Origin: an uncultured bacterium
GTDB taxonomy: Bacteria > Patescibacteriota > Minisyncoccia > Phycocordibacterales > Zambryskibacteraceae
DNA length: 64,000 nt
NCBI GenBank assembly: GCA_963789635.1
Contig: CAWBLF010000003.1
Coordinates: 140,364-204,363 of the forward strand
Direction: 5' to 3'
A model generated the notes under the pieces. That model was not told where the DNA came from. It worked only from the letters and a program-made list of their open reading frames with translations, and did no database searches. Of the stretch, positions 1-34,075 are shown one piece after another (position 1 is the first letter of the stretch; every line of letters begins with the position of its first letter). Made by a program: the position numbers and the translations under genes.

Positions 1-846
1 CGTGATGACAAGAAAGCCATCATTATCGACGGCAAAGAAGTGCTTTTTGTCAGTGAAAAAGACCCGGCAAACCTTCCTTGGAAAAGTTTGAATATAGATG
101 TTGTAGTCGAATCTACCGGTTTCTTTACCACATATCAGGGAGCAAAAGCTCATATTGACGCGGGTGCGCGCAAGGTAGTCATATCTGCTCCGGTGAAAGG
201 TGACCCTGTGCCGGGCATAGAAGGAGCTACAGTACTAATGGGAGTTAACGAAGAAAAACTTGGAACCTGCGTTATCAGTTCCAATGCTTCATGTACGACA
301 AATGCTTCGAGTCCTCTCATCGCCATCCTTGACGAATCGATTGGTATTGAAAAAGCTATTTTGAATACCGTTCACGGCTACACGGCATCACAATCACTGG
401 TTGATGGGCCATCGAAGAAAGATCGTCGTGAAGGACGCGCCGCTGCCCAAAACATCGTGCCCTCTTCCACTGGCGCGGCTATAGCCGTGACTCAAGCATT
501 TACCAAACTCAAAGGTTTGTTTGACGGAGTTTCAATGAGAGTGCCGGTCATCGCCGGTTCCATTGTTGATGTCACCTTTATTGCCAAGAGAGATACCACA
601 GCACAGGAGGTGAACGCAATACTCAAAAAAGCTTCCGGAGAAAGTCGTTGGAAAGGTGTTTTTTCCGTGACGGAAGAAGATTTGGTTTCCACAGACATTC
701 TCGGCTCGCATTTTGCTTCAATTGCCGACCTACAATTTACCCGTGTCGTAGGAGGCAATCTTGTCAAAGTTTTGGCATGGTACGACAACGAAATGGGATA
801 CACATATACACTTGTAGATCATGTGATTAAAACTGGAAGAAAATAA
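1..846 (+). CDS. gap: glyceraldehyde-3-phosphate dehydrogenase (type I), C-terminal part; 5' end lies upstream of the window
   Basis: Frame 1 is open from base 1. The translation carries the active-site motif SNASCTTN and the C-terminal motif WYDNEMGY. TAA stop at 844-846. Confidence 0.92.
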   Translation, partial: RDDKKAIIIDGKEVLFVSEKDPANLPWKSLNIDVVVESTGFFTTYQGAKAHIDAGARKVVISAPVKGDPVPGIEGATVLMGVNEEKLGTCVISSNASCTTNASSPLIAILDESIGIEKAILNTVHGYTASQSLVDGPSKKDRREGRAAAQNIVPSSTGAAIAVTQAFTKLKGLFDGVSMRVPVIAGSIVDVTFIAKRDTTAQEVNAILKKASGESRWKGVFSVTEEDLVSTDILGSHFASIADLQFTRVVGGNLVKVLAWYDNEMGYTYTLVDHVIKTGRK

Positions 847-864
847 AATAAGAAATGATAAATA
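846..864. repeat. left arm of a 19-bp perfect inverted repeat bracketing the four-helix-bundle gene (aaataagaaatgataaata)
   Basis: Exact reverse complement of 1248-1266. Begins at the last base of the gap stop codon. Confidence 0.9.
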
Positions 865-1236
865 ATGGATAACCCAAGACGAACCCATTTTAGATTCCTT
901 GATTGGTCAGTTTATAAAGACGCAAAACTTTTACATAAAAGTGTTTTAAAAGTTGTTGAAGGAATACCAAAAGAGTATAAGTACAATATTGGTGATCAAT
1001 TGCTTAAATGTAGTCTTTCAGTTGCATTGAATATTGCAGAAGGCTCTGGTAAACATTCAAATAAGGATTTGAATAGGTTTATAAACATTGCGCTCGGTTC
1101 ACTCTATGAAACCGTTGCTGCAATTGATATTTTGGAGGATATGAAGCTTGTCAAAACCAATGAACGTGAAGAAATCAGGATATTGTGCATTTCCATATCG
1201 AATCAGCTCGGCGGTTTAAAGAAAAAACTGGTATAA
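865..1236 (+). CDS. four-helix-bundle protein (23S rRNA intervening-sequence protein / S23p / Avd-like family)
   Basis: 123-aa ORF. Family hallmarks are present: NIAEGSGKHSNKD, then F..IALGSLYE. Similar in layout to the second copy at 32994-33368. Confidence 0.85.
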   Translation: MDNPRRTHFRFLDWSVYKDAKLLHKSVLKVVEGIPKEYKYNIGDQLLKCSLSVALNIAEGSGKHSNKDLNRFINIALGSLYETVAAIDILEDMKLVKTNEREEIRILCISISNQLGGLKKKLV

Positions 1237-1247
1237 TTTGAGTGCCG

Positions 1248-1266
1248 TATTTATCATTTCTTATTT
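1248..1266. repeat. right arm of the 19-bp perfect inverted repeat (tatttatcatttcttattt)
   Basis: Exact reverse complement of 846-864. Ends 16 nt upstream of the rpiB ATG. Confidence 0.9.
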
Positions 1267-1282
1267 CTCATTTACTACTACC

Positions 1283-1756
1283 ATGCGCATTTTCATAGGC
1301 ACTGACCATGCCGGTCTAGCTCAAAAGGAAAAAATAATTGAATACCTGCAAGGTGCTGGCTATGAGGTTGTAGACAAAGGGGCATTTGAATACGACGAAG
1401 GTGACGACTATCCCGATTTTGTCATTCCGGTGGCTCGTGAAGTATCACGCAACCCGGCTAACTCCAAAGGGGTAATTCTCGGCGGTTCCGGACAGGGAGA
1501 AGCAATGACCGCAAATCGTTTTCCCAATGTTCGTGCCGCACTTTTTTATGCTTCGGCAATGTCCCTCACCAGTAATGTCACCAACTTGCAACTTTCACGA
1601 GAGCACAATGATGCGAATATTCTTGCTATTGGTTCACGATTCGTGACGGATGATCAGGCCGTCGATGCAGTCCGTGAATGGCTTGACACACCGTTCTCAA
1701 ATGTTGAGCGTCACAAGAGAAGAATATTAAAAATGGATCGCTCTGCGCACGACTAG
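1283..1756 (+). CDS. rpiB: ribose-5-phosphate isomerase B (RpiB/LacA/LacB family)
   Basis: MRIFIGTDHAG start motif and GGSGQGEAMTANR. I chose the internal ATG at 1283 because the upstream part of the tracked ORF is inverted-repeat sequence. Confidence 0.85.
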   Translation: MRIFIGTDHAGLAQKEKIIEYLQGAGYEVVDKGAFEYDEGDDYPDFVIPVAREVSRNPANSKGVILGGSGQGEAMTANRFPNVRAALFYASAMSLTSNVTNLQLSREHNDANILAIGSRFVTDDQAVDAVREWLDTPFSNVERHKRRILKMDRSAHD

Positions 1757-1865
1757 TCCCATTAGAAGTCCGCCACCATGATAAAAACAAAGACAGGAGA
1801 GGCTGATGGCGAGCGTAACAAACAAAACATAATGTTTATACTTACTATTTTAGACTTCTAATAGG

Positions 1866-2600
1866 ATGATTGAAATCATTCCGGCAATTATTCCAAAAAG
1901 TTTTGAGGATTTAAACGAGCATCTGGGGCTTGTGGCAGGATTAGTGCCGCTTGTCCAAATTGATATTACGGACGGAAAGTTTACTTCCTCAAAATCTTGG
2001 CCATATATAAAAAATCCGGATCCTGACTTTGTAAAAATTATTCGTGAAGAAGAGAGTTTCCCGTATTGGGAAGAGTTGGAATTTGAGTTTCATCTTATGG
2101 TGGCAAATCCACAGGATTATGTTCAAGAATGGATTTCTGCTGGCGCACAAAGAATCATCGTCCATTATGAGTCTTTTGCCGGCACCAATGAAGCAAAAGC
2201 CTTTGCGGATAAATTTCAAAAAGAATTTGGAAAGAACGGATCCACCATAGGGACAGAACTTGGTATCGCTTTGGATATGAAGACCGATACATCTGTTTTA
2301 GATTCAATTATTGAGAAATTTGATTATGTGCAATTTATGGGTATAGACCATGATGGTGAGCAAGGTGTCGCTTTCGATGAAAAAGTTCTGGACAAAATCC
2401 GTTCACTGCGTTCTTTTTCACCAAAATTACCCATAAGTGTGGATGGCGGGGTCACCCTGGATAACGCACCTAGGCTTATTGAAGCCGGAGCCACACGTCT
2501 TGTCATCGGCTCGGCAATCTTTCAGAGTGATGATATTCCGGGAACCATCGAAGACTTTGAAAGTATTGGCAATGATACCGAGGCAGGCCTTGAGGCATAG
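1866..2600 (+). CDS. rpe: ribulose-phosphate 3-epimerase family protein (divergent)
   Basis: TIM-barrel epimerase-like pattern: DITDGKF, HLMV, VH.E, VDGGV, GSAIF. Sits in a pentose-phosphate gene context. Confidence 0.6.
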   Translation: MIEIIPAIIPKSFEDLNEHLGLVAGLVPLVQIDITDGKFTSSKSWPYIKNPDPDFVKIIREEESFPYWEELEFEFHLMVANPQDYVQEWISAGAQRIIVHYESFAGTNEAKAFADKFQKEFGKNGSTIGTELGIALDMKTDTSVLDSIIEKFDYVQFMGIDHDGEQGVAFDEKVLDKIRSLRSFSPKLPISVDGGVTLDNAPRLIEAGATRLVIGSAIFQSDDIPGTIEDFESIGNDTEAGLEA

Positions 2601-2672
2601 CCTCGGCATGGTTGTTATCGAGGCTTAGCCTTGAGAATTGAAACTAAGGCTAAGCCCTCGGTAACCATATGT
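2583..2672. repeat. CGAGG/CCTCG-core modular palindromic repeat cluster (copy region R1)
   Basis: gaggcatagcctcgg ... cgaggcttagccttgagaattgaaactaaggctaagccctcgg. The middle part is the reverse complement of the module ccttagtttcaa(a)ttctcaaggctaagcctcg seen at 26729 and 31639. Overlaps the rpe stop codon. Confidence 0.8.
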
Positions 2673-2720
2673 ATTTCATCCTAGGCAACCTTCGTTATGT
2701 TACAATAATGTCATAAATCT

Positions 2721-3590
2721 ATGGCGAATTTGGATGACTCAAAAATAAAAGAGCTCGAAGTCACCGCGAACAATATTCGTGAATCGATAATAGAAATGCT
2801 TCTCGAAGCGAAAAGCGGGCATACTGCCGGTCCCCTAGGTATGGCGGATATTTTCACATACCTTTATTTTTACGGACTGAAGCATGACCCCAAGAACCCT
2901 TTTTGGCCGGAGCGCGACAGACTGATCCTTTCCAACGGTCATATTTGTCCGGTGCTTTATGCCACTATGGCGCACGCAGGGTATTTTTCGGTGGACGAAC
3001 TGAAAACCTTGCGCAAATTTGGTACACGCCTACAAGGCCATCCGCATCGTGAATGGCTTCCTATACTCGAAACTTCTTCTGGTCCACTCGGTGAGGGATT
3101 GTCACAGGCGGTTGGTATGGCGCTTGCGGATAGGATTGACAATGGCACCTCATCGGGCAAGTTCTTTTATTGTTTGATGGGGGACGGCGAGCTTGACGAG
3201 GGCGTAAACTGGGAAGCTATGATGCTGGCCGGCAAAGAAAAAATTCATAACCTTATTGCGGTGGTGGATCGCAATAATATTCAGATTGACGGTTTTACAG
3301 AAAATATTATGCCTCTTGATTCACTCAAGGCGAAGTGGGAAGCCTTCAATTGGCACGTGGTGGAATGTTCAGGGCATGATTTTCGTGCTATAGACGAAGC
3401 TTTTGCCGAAGCGAAAGGAGTTTTTGAAAGACCGTCGGTCATCATTGCACACAATATTCCGGGCAAAGGGGTGAAAGAGTTTGAACGCAGATTTGAATGG
3501 CATGGAAAACCACCCAATAAGGAGGAAGCGGATATGGCCTTGCGTGAATTGCGCACTTTGGGCGGAAAAATAATGAGCGAGCATCAATAA
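2721..3590 (+). CDS. tkt: transketolase, N-terminal (thiamine-diphosphate binding) subunit
   Basis: 289 aa with GHP, GDGELDEG and N..IAVVDRN motifs. Followed by the C-terminal subunit gene. Confidence 0.9.
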   Translation: MANLDDSKIKELEVTANNIRESIIEMLLEAKSGHTAGPLGMADIFTYLYFYGLKHDPKNPFWPERDRLILSNGHICPVLYATMAHAGYFSVDELKTLRKFGTRLQGHPHREWLPILETSSGPLGEGLSQAVGMALADRIDNGTSSGKFFYCLMGDGELDEGVNWEAMMLAGKEKIHNLIAVVDRNNIQIDGFTENIMPLDSLKAKWEAFNWHVVECSGHDFRAIDEAFAEAKGVFERPSVIIAHNIPGKGVKEFERRFEWHGKPPNKEEADMALRELRTLGGKIMSEHQ

Positions 3591-3605
3591 TTTTCAAAAG
3601 ATAAA

Positions 3606-4613
3606 GTGTTAAATAAAGATTTAAAATTAAATACAAAGATTTTCACCGCAGATGTGGAACAAATTCCGATCCGCAAAGGTTTTGGCGAGGGTCTGGCTAT
3701 TGCGGGAGAACAAAATGTAAATGTGGTCGGACTTTGCGCTGACCTGACCGAATCTACCCAGATGTATATGTTTAAAGACAAGTTTCCTGAAAGATTTATT
3801 GAAATTGGTGTTGCAGAGCAAAATTTGGCCGGAGTGGCGAGTGGTATGGCAGCGATGGGGAAAATCCCATTCATTACATCGTACGCAATGTTTTCTCCTG
3901 GAAGAAATTGGGAACAAATCAGAACGACTATTGCCTACAACAATCGTCCCGTAAAAATTGCCGGCTCACACGCTGGCGTGTCTGTGGGTCCCGATGGAGG
4001 AACGCACCAAGCCATTGAAGATATCGCTATAACCCGTGTCATACCGCGTATGGTCGTCATTTCTCCATGTGATGCCACAGAGGCCAAGAAAGCGACAATT
4101 GCCCTCGCCAAGACAGACACACCCGTATATCTTCGTCTTGCCCGTGAGAAGACTCCGGTGATGACCACCGAAGACACCCCATTTGAAATCGGCAAGGCGC
4201 AAATTTTCTGGGATTCATCACTTGGAAGCCGAGCTTCCAAGTTGGAAGTGACTATCATTGCCACTGGCGCGTTGGTTTACAAAGCTCTTCTAGCAGCTAA
4301 AAAATTGGAAGCGGAAGGAATCGGTTCAATAGTTATAAATCTGGCAACTATCAAACCACTTGATGAAGAAACTATTTTGACTGCCGTGAAGCGTGCTTCG
4401 AGTGTGGTAACGGTAGAGGAGCATCAAATAATCGGCGGTATGGGTTCAGCGATTGCCGAGTTGCTCGCCCAAAAATTTCCAGCACCCCAAGAATTTATTG
4501 GTGTCCACGATCAATTTGGTCAATCTGGAAACATGGACGAACTTATTGAACACTATGGTCTTGATGACAAATCAATTGTTGAAGCGGTAAAAAAAGTAAT
4601 CAGTAGACAGTAG
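3606..4613 (+). CDS. tkt: transketolase, C-terminal (pyrimidine-binding plus C-terminal domain) subunit
   Basis: 335 aa with IEIGVAEQN and GPDGGTHQAIEDIA motifs. GTG start. Confidence 0.9.
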   Translation: MLNKDLKLNTKIFTADVEQIPIRKGFGEGLAIAGEQNVNVVGLCADLTESTQMYMFKDKFPERFIEIGVAEQNLAGVASGMAAMGKIPFITSYAMFSPGRNWEQIRTTIAYNNRPVKIAGSHAGVSVGPDGGTHQAIEDIAITRVIPRMVVISPCDATEAKKATIALAKTDTPVYLRLAREKTPVMTTEDTPFEIGKAQIFWDSSLGSRASKLEVTIIATGALVYKALLAAKKLEAEGIGSIVINLATIKPLDEETILTAVKRASSVVTVEEHQIIGGMGSAIAELLAQKFPAPQEFIGVHDQFGQSGNMDELIEHYGLDDKSIVEAVKKVISRQ

Positions 4614-4721: not shown

Positions 4722-4949
4722 ATGAAACTCAAACCAGGAATTTACAAACACGCGAAGTCTGGGAATGAATACCGCGTTATCGATGTTGCAAAGCATTCCG
4801 AAACGCTTGAAGATATGGTGGTCTATGAAGCTTTATACAAAAACGAGCTGTCAAAACTTTGGGTTCGCCCACTAAGTATGTTTACCGAAGAAGTCGAAAT
4901 CGACGGCTCAAAGACTCCCCGTTTTGTTTTCCTCCGTGATTCAAACTAA
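4722..4949 (+). CDS. DUF1653-like small protein
   Basis: 75 aa. The pattern G.YKH.K.G..Y.V...A.HSET.E..VVY.ALY is typical of DUF1653. Confidence 0.65.
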   Translation: MKLKPGIYKHAKSGNEYRVIDVAKHSETLEDMVVYEALYKNELSKLWVRPLSMFTEEVEIDGSKTPRFVFLRDSN

Positions 4950-4966
4950 CTTCTAACCTCTAACTT

Positions 4967-5965
4967 CTAGCTTAGCAATTTCGGTCTATAGCTTTCCGGT
5001 GCTTCTTTCAATAGTTTTTCCAAATCGGGTCTTGTAAGGAGACCTTTTTGCGCACCGACTTGCTGGACCACGGACATTGAGTTAATCGGTCCCCATGACA
5101 GAGCTTGCGGAATACTCAAATCTAGAGCCAAGGCGACAACGAAAGTTGAAGCAAAGGCATCACCCGCTCCAGTGCGGTCATATGGAGGTTTCGGGTCGGG
5201 GTACGTAGGCATAAACCAGGTTTCCATATCATCAAATGCATAAGCACCGTTTGATCCGTCGGTAATAACAACGATTTTTGGTCCGAGCGCGGCAATCTTC
5301 GGTAGAAGCTCCACCGCTTCAATATCTTCTTCAATCCCCAGGATTCTGCGGGCCTCTTCCACGTTGCAGAAAAAAACTTCTGTGCGTTTGTAAAGTTCTG
5401 CCAGTTCCGAAAGAGGGAATCCCATCTGAAATGTCCCGGGTTGAAAAGCAAGTTTGATGTCGGGATGCTGTTTTAGATATTCCACAAGCTCTTTGTGGTA
5501 TGGGAGAGAGTTTGGGGCAAGTGAAGACAGATATACCCATTTCGGATTGCCAAAATCCGGCAACGAGTAGTTGTATTCCTGATGTTTTACCAGAATGGTG
5601 CGGTCGGCTTCGTACCAAAGCACATAGTGATAATTGGTCTCCATATTTTCATTTGTTTTGACAAACTCCGTCGATACAGAATTCCCTTTGAGTGCCTCCA
5701 GACACTCCTTGCCGTTTGTATCATCGCCGATGTTTGCCACCAAGGCCGAAGAGAGACCAAGACGGGAGGCCGATACAGCGGCGTTGGCCGAATTGCCCAC
5801 CGCTCGTATGACGTCAACCGACTCGTAAGGCACCTTGTCGCCAAAACGCAAAGAAATGAGGCACTTCTCATGGTTTATATCGCAATTGACGCTTGCGTCT
5901 TTGATGCGAATAAATGCGTCGGTAACCATGTCGCCGATAGCGACAAAATCAAAATTATTATTCAT
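4967..5965 (-). CDS. PfkB-family carbohydrate/nucleoside kinase
   Basis: 332 aa. N-terminal AIGD..TD and the C-terminal PfkB signature DRTGAGDAF. Confidence 0.8.
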   Translation of the reverse strand: MNNNFDFVAIGDMVTDAFIRIKDASVNCDINHEKCLISLRFGDKVPYESVDVIRAVGNSANAAVSASRLGLSSALVANIGDDTNGKECLEALKGNSVSTEFVKTNENMETNYHYVLWYEADRTILVKHQEYNYSLPDFGNPKWVYLSSLAPNSLPYHKELVEYLKQHPDIKLAFQPGTFQMGFPLSELAELYKRTEVFFCNVEEARRILGIEEDIEAVELLPKIAALGPKIVVITDGSNGAYAFDDMETWFMPTYPDPKPPYDRTGAGDAFASTFVVALALDLSIPQALSWGPINSMSVVQQVGAQKGLLTRPDLEKLLKEAPESYRPKLLS

Positions 5966-23560: not shown

Positions 23561-23604
23561 ATGTATTACTTCCACTACAGTATACTGTAGTGGAAGTAAT
23601 ACAT
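23561..23604. promoter_or_regulatory. 44-bp perfect palindrome (atgtattacttccactacagta|tactgtagtggaagtaatacat); candidate operator and/or terminator
   Basis: Perfect dyad verified base by base. Shares the 20-bp core cactacagtatactgtagtg with 24049-24090. Lies 32 nt downstream of the HTH gene stop. Confidence 0.6.
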
Positions 23605-23636: not shown

Positions 23637-24032
23637 TTAGAAAATTTTTAGATTTTTGTGAGGTCTTCTAACTCGCGGAGGAAGTATTCCATACAGCAAT
23701 CTTTCAATTTCGTCAGCCAACTTGCCTTTTTTGGAGATTATTGAAATGGTTTCTTTGTATTTTCCAGCATCCATTGCAAGTGAGAATTTTGCGATAGTGG
23801 TTGGGCTAAGATGAATAATTTCAGAGATATTTTCGAAGGATATGTTCTTTTCCAGCATATAAATCATTGTGATTCTCTTTGCAAACATGATTTTTTCTGT
23901 TTTCGTGAATAACTCTTTCATTACCGAAAGGGAACGTGAACGGTCATCTGCCTCTTGAAATGTCTTGGCAAATTGAGTCATTATTTTGTTGAAAACTTGC
24001 TGGTCTATTTTCTTTTGAGATATATGTGGCAT
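23637..24032 (-). CDS. TrpR-like (YerC/YecD family) helix-turn-helix protein
   Basis: 131 aa. The pattern L.T..E..M.AKR......L.......I......S..TI is typical of Trp-repressor-related YerC/YecD proteins. Confidence 0.6.
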   Translation of the reverse strand: MPHISQKKIDQQVFNKIMTQFAKTFQEADDRSRSLSVMKELFTKTEKIMFAKRITMIYMLEKNISFENISEIIHLSPTTIAKFSLAMDAGKYKETISIISKKGKLADEIERLLYGILPPRVRRPHKNLKIF

Positions 24033-24048: not shown

Positions 24049-24090
24049 ACTATATATTACACTACAGTATACTGTAGTGTAATATATAGT
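24049..24090. promoter_or_regulatory. 42-bp perfect palindrome (actatatattacactacagta|tactgtagtgtaatatatagt); candidate operator of the HTH gene
   Basis: Perfect dyad verified base by base. Lies 16 nt upstream of the HTH start codon. Same 20-bp core as 23561-23604. Confidence 0.6.
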
Positions 24091-32049: not shown

Positions 32050-32964
32050 ATGGCAAACCGGCACCTTGCAAGATCAGTGGTAATGCAGACACTCTTCGAA
32101 TGGGACTTCGCAAAACGATCCCGTGAAGAGGCATTTGGCATACTCAAACGAAACAAAGATGAGTTTGCTCCAGGGGTTACCGAAACATCCTTTATGGACG
32201 GTCTTTTGGAATCCGTTTTGGACAAGCAAAAGGACATTGACAGCATCATTACCAAAGCGGCACCCGATTGGCCAATTGAAAAAATATCAGTGATTGATCG
32301 CAATATTTTGCGATTGGGTCTTTCGGAATTGCTCTTCTCCGACGCAGAACAAGTGCCACCAAAAGTGGCTATCAACGAAGCCATTGAGCTAGCAAAATCA
32401 TTCGGTGGAGAAACATCGGGTAAATTTGTAAACGGAGTCCTCGGCGCAGTCTACAAAGAAATGGGGGAACCCGGCAAAGACGAAGTTTCCACCAAGAAAA
32501 AAACAATCAAGAATATTCCAGATGACAAGCTGACCATCGAAGACCTAGGTGGGGCTCTGGTTTATTCTATTTATGAAGGTGTCATATATTTGGCTTTGGT
32601 TCATGATGTCTTCGGTCACTGGACTCTTTCAAAAGGAAAGCTGGAAAATGGCGAGTCGGTGAAAGACGGGACAACACGAGAGATAAAAGAAGAGATTGGT
32701 ATTGATATAAATATTGAAGAAGATTTGGGGACAAACGAATACATTGCATTTCATCCGGAGAAAGGTAAGCTGAAAAAAAGAGTTCATTACTTTCTTGCAA
32801 AAGCGGACTTTCAGCCACTGACACTTGAAGCTCACGAGTCTCGTGGCGGATTGACTGACGCGCAATGGTTCCCGGTAGAAAAAATCGGCGAACTCAATTT
32901 TTATGACGATATCATGCCGTTGGTGACCAAAGGCATTGAAATGATGGGAAAGAAGGAAGTTTAA
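32050..32964 (+). CDS. nusB: NusB antitermination factor fused to a C-terminal NUDIX hydrolase domain
   Basis: The first ~145 aa carry NusB motifs (R..A.Q.LF..DF, DRNILRLG..EL, INEAIELAK.FG). The C-terminal part carries a Nudix box, GKLENGESVKDGTTREIKEEIGI. Confidence 0.8.
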   Translation: MANRHLARSVVMQTLFEWDFAKRSREEAFGILKRNKDEFAPGVTETSFMDGLLESVLDKQKDIDSIITKAAPDWPIEKISVIDRNILRLGLSELLFSDAEQVPPKVAINEAIELAKSFGGETSGKFVNGVLGAVYKEMGEPGKDEVSTKKKTIKNIPDDKLTIEDLGGALVYSIYEGVIYLALVHDVFGHWTLSKGKLENGESVKDGTTREIKEEIGIDINIEEDLGTNEYIAFHPEKGKLKKRVHYFLAKADFQPLTLEAHESRGGLTDAQWFPVEKIGELNFYDDIMPLVTKGIEMMGKKEV

Positions 32965-32993
32965 AAGTTTTGAAGTTTGTAAGTTTTTAAGTT
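32964..32993. repeat. left arm of an imperfect 30-nt inverted repeat bracketing the second four-helix-bundle gene
   Basis: aaagttttgaagtttgtaagtttttaagtt pairs with 33346-33375 at 26 Watson-Crick pairs plus 1 G-U out of 30. Begins at the last base of the nusB stop codon. Confidence 0.8.
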
Positions 32994-33368
32994 ATGGCCA
33001 CAAGACTAGAGAATCTAAAAATATATCAGATGGCGCGTGAGCTGGAACTTCGGGTTTTTGAATTAACGAAAAGTTTTCCAACCGCAGAAAATTTTAGAAG
33101 CATAGATCAATTGCGCCGTTCGTCTTCATCTGTTACCAATAACATTGCTGAATCTTATAACAAGAAGTCAATAAAGGATAAAATAAGAATTATTAATGAT
33201 ATTGTTAAGGGTGAAGCAAACGAAACAAGGTCTAATCTTGAAATGTTTCAAGAAAAGAAGTTTTTCAAAGACCAAAATCTGATTGATAGATACACAGAAC
33301 TCATAAAAGCAGTCAGCGGATATATAGCATTTCTCAAAACTTCTCAACTTAACAACTTATCAACTTAA
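32994..33368 (+). CDS. four-helix-bundle protein (23S rRNA intervening-sequence protein / S23p / Avd-like family)
   Basis: 124 aa with L.IYQ.A.EL...V..LT..FP and DQLRRSSSSV.NNIAE motifs. Confidence 0.85.
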   Translation: MATRLENLKIYQMARELELRVFELTKSFPTAENFRSIDQLRRSSSSVTNNIAESYNKKSIKDKIRIINDIVKGEANETRSNLEMFQEKKFFKDQNLIDRYTELIKAVSGYIAFLKTSQLNNLST

Positions 33369-33375
33369 AAACTTT
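33346..33375. repeat. right arm of the inverted repeat bracketing the second four-helix-bundle gene
   Basis: aacttaacaacttatcaacttaaaaacttt. Overlaps the ORF's 3' end and stops 3 nt before the rnc ATG. Confidence 0.8.
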
Positions 33376-33378
33376 TTT

Positions 33379-34075
33379 ATGGACGGTTTTAATCAATTTG
33401 AAGAACGAATAGGTGTGATTTTCGAAAATAAAAACTTGCTCAAGCAGGCGTTTGTTCATCGTTCATATTTAAATGAAAACAAAGAATTTCCTCTAGGCCA
33501 CAATGAACGTCTGGAGTTCCTCGGAGACGCAGTTCTTGAACTGGTGATTACCGACTATCTTTACACCAAATACCCCGAGAAAAACGAAGGAGATATGACA
33601 TCGCTTCGCTCTGCCTTGGTCAACGCCACCGCTCTTCATAAAGTGGGTGCCAGATATTGGTATCAATGACCTACTTCTGCTCTCCCGAGGTGAATCTAAG
33701 GACCTTGGGCGTGCTCGTCAGTACATTCTTGCCAATACAATGGAGGCATTGATTGGCGCCATTTACCTTGACCGTGGATATGATATGGCCAAGAAATTTA
33801 TTTATGAATTCATAACTCCGCTTTTGGACAAAGTGATTGAAGACGAAAGCTGGATTGACTCCAAGAGTTTATTCCAAGAAAAAGCCCAAGATCATGCAGG
33901 GGTAACTCCCGCATATCAAACCTTGAAAGAAACTGGTCCCGACCACGACAAGCATTTCACAGTCGGCGTGTATTTGAAAAATGAACTCATTGCTCAAGGC
34001 GAAGGGGATTCCAAACAGGAAGCGGAGCAGGCAGCAGCTCACAATGCTCTCAAGGCAAAAGGTTGGAATAATTGA
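33379..34075 (+). CDS. rnc: ribonuclease III, interrupted by an apparent 1-nt insertion (+1 frame change) near 33650-33652
   Basis: Frame 1 gives NERLEFLGDAVLEL ... LRSALVNATALHKVGA. Frame 2 continues DIGINDLLLLSRGE ... MEALIGAIYLD plus a C-terminal dsRBD. Removing one base from gcca restores VGADIGIN. Confidence 0.85.

Follow-up and report, generated by a model that had tools for sequence, protein, structure and literature searches.

Some insertions in 23S ribosomal RNA (rRNA) carry an open reading frame (ORF) of their own. These intervening sequences (IVSs), known from Coxiella burnetii and Leptospira, are ~0.4 kb long and patchily distributed, and are closed by a terminal stem of 20–30 bp with an ORF of the PF05635 family in the loop and tandem heptamers before its ATG. 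In the C. burnetii IVS (428 nt), inverted repeats at the ends make up a 28-bp stem around the S23p (PF05635) ORF, two to three tandem GACAGAT heptamers lie just before the ATG, and RNase III cuts mid-stem in vitro, the ends having been mapped by rapid amplification of cDNA ends (PMC4990558). PF05635 ORFs are also present in rRNA insertions of the Candidate Phyla Radiation (PMC11270868) and have been reported between cas genes (PMC3936711). The family (PF05635/TIGR02436) is very large and of unknown function, with many members in Patescibacteria, cyanobacteria and Bacteroidota; it is also the parent family of Avd, a protein of diversity-generating retroelements (DGRs). Here we describe two PF05635 cassettes in a 64,000-nt stretch of DNA (the window) from an uncultured bacterium of the Zambryskibacteraceae (contig CAWBLF010000003.1, positions 140,364–204,363). 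We focus on cassette 1 (846–1266), which separates gap from rpiB and which we read, with somewhat better than even confidence, as an IVS-type cassette in an mRNA operon, its stem serving as an RNase III or looping-out site.

The arms of cassette 1, AAATAAGAAATGATAAATA (846–864) and its exact reverse complement (1248–1266), are 19 nt long, 100% complementary and 383 nt apart, and enclose a 123-aa ORF in an element of 421 nt. The first base of the left arm is the final base of the gap stop codon and its last base lies directly 5′ of the ATG at 865; 16 nt separate the end of the right arm from the rpiB ATG at 1283, a start accepted because the Pfam match runs from residue 3 and the orthologue in the related locus L137 begins there too. 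Both the perfect repeat and its boundaries are as given in a first-pass annotation of this DNA, made from the sequence alone. The cassette occupies the entire gap-rpiB spacer of an operon in which rpiB is followed by rpe and tkt, with all four genes on the + strand and spacers elsewhere of at most 18 nt. Folding of 836–1282 yields, in both the minimum free energy and the centroid structure, a long-range stem that closes the whole ORF, with 19/19 core pairs and ~6 further outward pairs (~25 bp in all). The duplex has an energy of ~−23 kcal/mol.

The arms are A/T-rich (11% G + C), and a chance A/T-rich dyad or an intrinsic terminator had been offered as the alternative. The controls refute this. 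In 3000 shuffles of the two flank windows (120 nt each) the score never rose to the observed 19 (null mean 7.7, maximum 16.5), and a 372-nt pseudo-gene slid over the whole window (2532 positions) scored 17 or more at three places only: cassette 1, the other PF05635 cassette (cassette 2) and, at 23.6 kb, a pair of palindromes. A terminator scan of 680–1900 was empty; the arms lie 383 nt apart, with neither a G + C-rich stem nor a T-run, and nothing promoter-like or terminator-like was found between gap and rpiB. Since the layout is also seen at the other PF05635 gene of the window and in 70% of relatives (below), we accord chance or a terminator next to no probability.

In the reading that we prefer, the two arms would pair within a polycistronic gap/rpiB transcript, with which cassette 1 is presumably co-transcribed, into a stem of ~19–25 bp. 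The base of this stem would connect the stop codon of gap with a site that precedes the rpiB start by 16 nt, looping the 0.4-kb insert out of the transcript. About two helical turns of double-stranded RNA would thereby be offered to RNase III, and cleavage would leave gap, cassette and rpiB on separate messages. In favour of this reading are the precedent within the family, the lengths of the stems, the selection for pairing described below, the operon context free of promoter or terminator signals and the presence of rnc, the gene for RNase III, in the lineage. The parallel with stem-bounded, RNase III-excised rRNA insertions, drawn on first pass, finds support in the Coxiella work (PMC4990558). 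Cassette 1 falls outside the strict rRNA-IVS class because it is not in rRNA (the window holds none, and Rfam finds one tRNA only); its other testable features match. The host transcript would here be a protein-coding operon rather than an rRNA, the Coxiella ORF is decaying and apparently untranslated whereas that of cassette 1 is under purifying selection, and RNase III cleavage, demonstrated in Coxiella, is predicted for cassette 1. Long stems between cistrons or before rnc are known as RNase III sites in mRNA, in the early region of phage T7 and the Escherichia coli rnc leader, and cassette 2 of the window lies directly upstream of rnc; unlike the cassettes, those stems are local hairpins with no gene in the loop.

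The cassette 1 protein matches PF05635 (23S_rRNA_IVP; E 2e-25, 89.4 bits against a cut-off of 33.8) and TIGR02436 (E 3e-25, 88.7 bits against 24). An AlphaFold (AF2) monomer model (pLDDT 93.9) has four long helices arranged as a four-helix bundle. Foldseek superposes the model on XCC0516 (2GSC, TM 0.88/0.92), on BT_0352 (2RLD, TM 0.79/0.90) and, more loosely, on bAvd (4DWL, TM 0.75/0.86), so that the family assignment and the fold shared with Avd, both proposed in the first-pass annotation, hold. The family motif RxxxSxxxNxxE (PMC3936711) is present as K48-S52-N56-E59, with K replacing R; across 34 aligned relatives S52 and E59 never vary, while at least 90% keep R48 and N56. Likeness to the Avd proteins (bAvd, 4DWL, 8UB7) consists of the common fold and a weak profile similarity (PF22296 in relatives; NF033474). 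Against the DGR Avd equivalog NF033474, however, the protein scores 18 bits (E 0.002), far below the cut-off of 80, and neither an adjacent reverse transcriptase nor template/variable repeats were found at the locus, where the neighbours are gap, rpiB, rpe and tkt. Compared with its orthologue in locus L081 (75% amino acid identity), the cassette 1 ORF has a nonsynonymous divergence (dN) of 0.18, below that of rpiB (0.24), and the cassette 2 ORF compared with locus L148 has a ratio of nonsynonymous to synonymous divergence (dN/dS) of 0.074. Judged by these substitution rates, the PF05635 ORFs of both cassettes are functional and under purifying selection, and are not decaying.

Cassette 2 carries an inverted repeat of 31 nt (87% complementary) that is unrelated in sequence to the arms of cassette 1 and is placed in the same way, from the upstream stop codon to near the downstream start. 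The window and L148 differ at 11 positions of these arms, and the duplex is retained in both (−23 and −29 kcal/mol). The same number of random substitutions gives −14.7 ± 3.5 kcal/mol (p ~0.001 in one direction, 0.08 in the other). Because the duplex has stayed as stable or become stabler despite 11 substitutions, this points to selection for arm pairing in cassette 2. The reading frame of the adjacent rnc is split into overlapping ORFs (33379–33669 and 33647–34075) by one extra A after GCC, such that ...KVGA is followed by RYWYQ and a stop; this frameshift may be real, making rnc a pseudogene, or may be an assembly error. In close relatives the RNase III is intact at 231 aa (...KVGADIGINDLL...), and rnc is present in the lineage.

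To place the two cassettes in their family, we surveyed non-redundant PF05635 genes from Patescibacteria and IMG/VR contigs. Genes came from an rpiB-anchored scan of genome representatives, a metagenome scan, an IMG/VR scan with the family alignment and exact-protein look-ups; the survey was built on the last two because a single-protein metagenome scan gave only four loci. Each gene was scored by the best ungapped inverted repeat between its start and stop regions (positive at a score of at least 12), with 225 other genes from the same loci as controls. Flanking repeats, which on the chance alternative should be lacking at other four-helix-bundle genes, were present at both such genes of the window (2/2) and in 23 of 33 dereplicated PF05635 genes (70%), against 12 of 225 controls (5%; Fisher 1e-16). 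Of the control positives, several adjoin PF05635 genes, and one (L105 3984–4373) itself belongs to PF05635 but escaped the hidden Markov model. Among cyanobacterial plasmid PF05635 genes, checked separately, 4/6 have the repeat: a Nostoc punctiforme plasmid cassette has 35-nt arms of AGTCAGG units, and the cassette on N. edaphicum plasmid pNe_5 (L155 1400–1888) has 34-nt TAGGGAG arms and lies antisense between two ribonucleotide reductase subunit genes. On this sequence evidence, bracketing by inverted repeats is a family-wide, non-random pattern of PF05635 genes, and most members in several bacterial phyla share the bracketed architecture. We considered whether the genes with no inverted repeat are DGR avd genes and found no support for this, as no reverse transcriptase adjoins them.

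The arms are built from tandem short units, a feature that goes beyond the first-pass annotation, as do the ORF-less hairpins described below. The best internal period was 7 in 45/56 arms and 8 in 8/56, with 3–5 units per arm; cassette 1 has period 7 and cassette 2 period 8. Unit sequence differs from cassette to cassette (AGTGGGA, GGAAGAA, TTACAAC, GTAAGGN, AGGGTGT, AAGGCAG, ACGTTGA and others), and the heptamers have no core in common. As the units are unrelated between cassettes, complementarity and periodicity are conserved rather than sequence. The 5′ arm is purine-rich in 22/28 cassettes. This had been considered as an orientation signal and was dropped: an inverted repeat reads alike on both strands, so the purine bias cannot separate RNA from DNA models.

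Strict 7-nt periodicity, with 3–5 units per arm, would also be expected if the heptamers were RNA or DNA sites for a pentameric PF05635 protein, for example in autoregulation or packaging, with arm complementarity following from the shared unit. Relatives of the protein are pentameric and bind nucleic acid in the DGR ribonucleoprotein (2GSC, 4DWL, 8UB7), each window paralogue has its own unit, and in Xanthomonas a 4-unit array of the GGGAATC type overlaps the start codon of XCC0516, the PF05635 protein of solved structure mentioned above (PMC4692102 supplement). Yet the heptamers have no shared conserved core, such arrays would not need an inverted partner although the inverted layout is the rule and pairing is kept through substitutions, and ORF-less hairpins persist with no local gene for the protein. 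We therefore think binding arrays quite unlikely as the explanation.

Heptameric repeats are over-represented in many bacteria, including GGGAATC in Xanthomonas, GGGGAYT (‘STRR’ type) in Nostoc and TAACTGA in Beggiatoaceae and cyanobacteria (PMC4692102, PMC4679880), and those of Xanthomonas often form convergent pairs between co-oriented genes (PMC4692102). They resemble the cassette arms in having tandem 7-nt units, typically in ~4 copies, in lying between co-oriented genes and in often forming convergent pairs capable of hairpin formation, and they are transcribed. In contrast to the present case, they were treated in these two papers as G-quadruplex or regulatory motifs with no link to PF05635; the units of cassette 1 are A/T-rich, and its pair of arrays encloses a gene. 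In the literature collection available to us, which is incomplete, no paper connected flanking inverted heptamers to PF05635 genes that lie outside rRNA. To judge by the searchable literature, the inverted-heptamer architecture shared across the family, like its ORF-less relatives, is undescribed.

Heptamer arrays also occur apart from PF05635 genes. A total of 33/70 period-7 arrays fall within the 5% of sequence that flanks such genes, and 18/27 extra arrays contain a 7-mer that is also present in the PF05635 arms of that locus, compared with 4.5% when arrays and arms come from different loci. Many of the extra arrays form ORF-less hairpins, found beside PF05635 cassettes in loci L095, L113, L086 and L030 and, on the Saccharibacteria contig L003, at the gap-rpiB junction itself (39 nt, 90% complementary, 123-nt loop). 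The window has a lone array at 4946–4973, whose reverse complement, AAGTTAG, resembles the cassette 2 unit; no partner arm was found for it, and it may be an arm remnant. Arms can also enclose other genes. Those of L083 surround a 102-aa gene in addition to the PF05635 gene, the extra gene being absent from the close relatives L084 and L085, and long inverted AGGCAGG arrays in L108 (3336–3377/4459–4575) surround a 350-aa DUF932 gene directly 3′ of a PF05635 gene itself lacking a repeat pair.

Such observations are what one would expect of a mobile or recombinogenic element acting at the DNA level, in which heptamer arrays are ends that form a hairpin or cruciform, the PF05635 protein is their partner, the ORF-less hairpins are non-autonomous (compare REPINs and RAYT) and any effects on RNA are secondary. 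The ORF-less hairpins of L003 and near the cassettes, the clustering of arrays around PF05635 genes, the sharing of units within a locus and the foreign cargo of L083 (two genes) and L108 all favour it, as do a patchy occupancy with a clean empty site, the absence of wobble asymmetry and an orientation to neighbours that looks random (below). On the other side, two cassettes of one genome have unrelated arms, and hence no shared terminal sequence that a transposase could recognise; the surroundings contain no transposase, recombinase or reverse transcriptase, no target-site duplication was identified, PF05635 has no known catalytic activity, and the divergence of the cassettes keeps pace with that of their flanking genes, indicating long vertical residence. 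Searched for with up to three mismatches, the 19-mer of cassette 1 has no further copy in the window, which together with the unrelated arms does not fit a transposon or miniature inverted-repeat transposable element. The likeness to REPIN-RAYT systems, a single-copy protein gene between short inverted repeats that also occur as ORF-less hairpins, is seen in related loci, the window itself offering only the lone array, and is an analogy: RAYT is a Y1 transposase whose chemistry is known, whereas no chemistry is known for PF05635 and the cassette protein is not a RAYT, and REP sequences are conserved within a genome, whereas the window cassettes have different units. We judge a DNA-level element unlikely.

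The history of the gap-rpiB junction bears on the same question. The first-pass annotation had the cassette inserted exactly in this spacer and suggested comparing the junction in relatives. In L137 (rpiB 92% identical) the junction is empty, with gap and rpiB 8 nt apart as against 436 nt in the window. L137 and L148/L149 are probably from the same genome, and the L148/L149 genome retains cassette 2. L081, more distantly related (rpiB 74%), has an orthologous cassette 1. Nucleotide identity between the window and L081 is 71% for the cassette and 67% for rpiB, and between the window and L148 it is 85.6% for cassette 2 and 82% and 86.8% for the flanking genes. Because divergence is in step with that of the flanking genes, both cassettes are long-resident and inherited vertically with their neighbours, with no sign of recent movement, and the empty site of L137 is most simply a clean loss. 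Comparison of filled and empty sites showed no target-site duplication, the spacer having diverged. The description of the cassette as portable thus survives in part: cassettes occur patchily in many unrelated contexts and cassette 1 is polymorphic for presence among relatives, but both window cassettes have co-diverged with their flanking genes, nothing points to recent movement, and no signature of transposition was found. We make no claim that the junction is an insertion hotspot, because in the unbiased rpiB-anchored set a heptamer hairpin or PF05635 cassette occupies ~2 of ~43 junctions, which is near the background density (2 PF05635 genes in the 64-kb window); other occupied junctions came from searches with the PF05635 protein itself.

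Two other kinds of insert at the gap-rpiB junction serve as natural negative controls. A ~100-aa gene whose product begins MxxYNKLVRDRIPE... lies there in L001 (5638–5940), L002 (5675–5980) and L027 (5632–5946), with no inverted repeat and no Pfam or NCBIfam match. In L138 (2271–3000), an insertion of ~700 nt comprising two paralogous small membrane-protein genes has no comparable flanking inverted repeat; it is polymorphic relative to L140 and L147, which have an identical rpiB protein. A member of the MxxYNKLVRDRIPE family (L083 3684–3992) also shares a stem with a PF05635 gene. In L083 the sequence GC(A/G)AAAAAT is common to the 3′ end of this gene and the left arm, and could have mediated deletion of the extra gene in L084.

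The tight fit of the cassettes to their spacers admits a further explanation, in which the stem draws the rpiB start up to the gap stop codon and ribosomes cross the base of the helix from gap to rpiB, so that translational coupling is kept despite the insert and with no cleavage. The base of the stem does connect the stop of gap (846) with a site lying 16 nt ahead of the rpiB ATG, the L137 empty-site spacer is 8 nt, and cassette 2 similarly reaches from the stop of nusB-NUDIX to within 2 nt of rnc. This is an argument from geometry, however, and any insert would fill the spacer in compact Patescibacteria genomes. Arms in other taxa lie 20–60 nt from the ORF and further still from neighbouring genes, and such a bridge has no precedent in the PF05635 family. 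We consider it very unlikely.

Several points weigh against an IVS-type cassette processed in mRNA. Stem formation in vivo is a prediction from sequence, and RNase III cleavage at the stem one drawn by analogy. With only 19 perfect A/U-rich pairs, the stem of cassette 1 is at the lower end for RNase III substrates, and rnc has a 1-nt frameshift in this assembly. The test of pairing maintenance applies to cassette 2 only, the L081 contig ending before the left arm of cassette 1. Orientation is also awkward for an element read within its neighbours’ transcript: 15 cassettes of the IMG/VR set are opposite to both neighbours against 11 in the same direction as both, and outside Patescibacteria cassettes are antisense to their neighbours as often as sense. 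Mismatches in 28 stems showed no wobble bias (35 G·U against 28 A·C), so the usual mark of an RNA helix read on one strand is absent, although the counts carry little information; sense and antisense duplex energies of the stems did not differ either (Wilcoxon p 0.18). Lastly, recurrence of heptamer units in nearby ORF-less hairpins implies a propagation step at the DNA level that lies outside the proposed model.

Taken together, the sequences suggest that PF05635 members are usually self-contained cassettes closed by a heptamer-built stem, and not ordinary operon genes. If so, the scattered positions of PF05635 genes between unrelated genes would be explained, and a function shared with the neighbours would be unnecessary. 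The rRNA IVSs would be tied to a much broader phenomenon, RNase III would gain a concrete RNA-processing role in minimal-genome organisms, and a way would open to approach the excess of bacterial heptameric repeats, which is unexplained. A bolder and tentative proposal, which we consider rather unlikely, is that PF05635 genes and inverted heptamer arrays constitute one widespread class of element, with gene-carrying and ORF-less hairpin forms, within rRNA and mRNA transcription units. The rRNA IVSs would then be its rRNA-resident subset and the heptamer excess (Xanthomonas GGGAATC, cyanobacterial STRR, TAACTGA) its footprint, and the protein would recognise or propagate its cognate hairpins, as RAYT does REPINs.

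Table 1 Cassettes 1 and 2, their host genes and the lone heptamer array (positions in the window)
Feature	Position	Strand	Remarks
gap, 3′ part (glyceraldehyde-3-phosphate dehydrogenase)	1..846	+	Pfam Gp_dh_C E 9e-51; ORF 40..846; stop TAA 844–846; upstream host gene
Cassette 1 left (5′) arm	846..864	+	79% purine; ~7-nt units (AATAAGA/AATGATA/AATA...)
PF05635/TIGR02436 four-helix-bundle gene, cassette 1 cargo	865..1236	+	123 aa
Cassette 1 right (3′) arm	1248..1266	+	exact reverse complement of 846–864
rpiB (ribose-5-phosphate isomerase B)	1283..1756	+	Pfam LacAB_rpiB E 8.5e-40 and orthologue alignment; downstream host gene
Lone array, four CTAACTT-type heptamers	4946..4973	+	overlaps stop codon, 3′ end of small ORF
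Cassette 2 left arm	32957..32993	+	five AAGTTTNN octamer units; from last codons of nusB-NUDIX gene to ORF ATG
Second PF05635 gene, cassette 2 cargo	32994..33368	+	124 aa; 28–29% identical to cassette 1 protein
Cassette 2 right arm	33336..33376	+	AACTT-type units; overlaps final ORF codons; ends 2 nt before rnc ATG
rnc (RNase III)	33379..34075	+	directly 3′ of cassette 2; two ORFs through 1-nt insertion

The palindrome pair at 23.6 kb consists of two copies (23561–23604 and 24049–24090) of a perfect ~44-nt palindrome (core ACTACAGTATACTGTAGT) that is not heptamer-built. The pair flanks a 131-aa minus-strand gene (23637–24032) with a weak Trp-repressor-like Pfam match, and looks like operator or terminator sites. 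A 42-nt inverted repeat (26587–26628/26950–26991; 71% complementary, 321 nt enclosed) lies in a gene-free gap between two minus-strand genes; the region has no Rfam match and may be a structured RNA.

In locus L105, a PF05635-like ORF (2971–3327) lies in another frame within a 1297-aa Eco57I-type methylase ORF (63–3956), and a second PF05635 gene with heptamer arms (3984–4373) follows 3′ of the methylase ORF. Upstream of cassette 2, a NusB domain and a NUDIX hydrolase domain are fused in a single ORF (32050–32964), and this fusion is kept in the relatives L148–L150.

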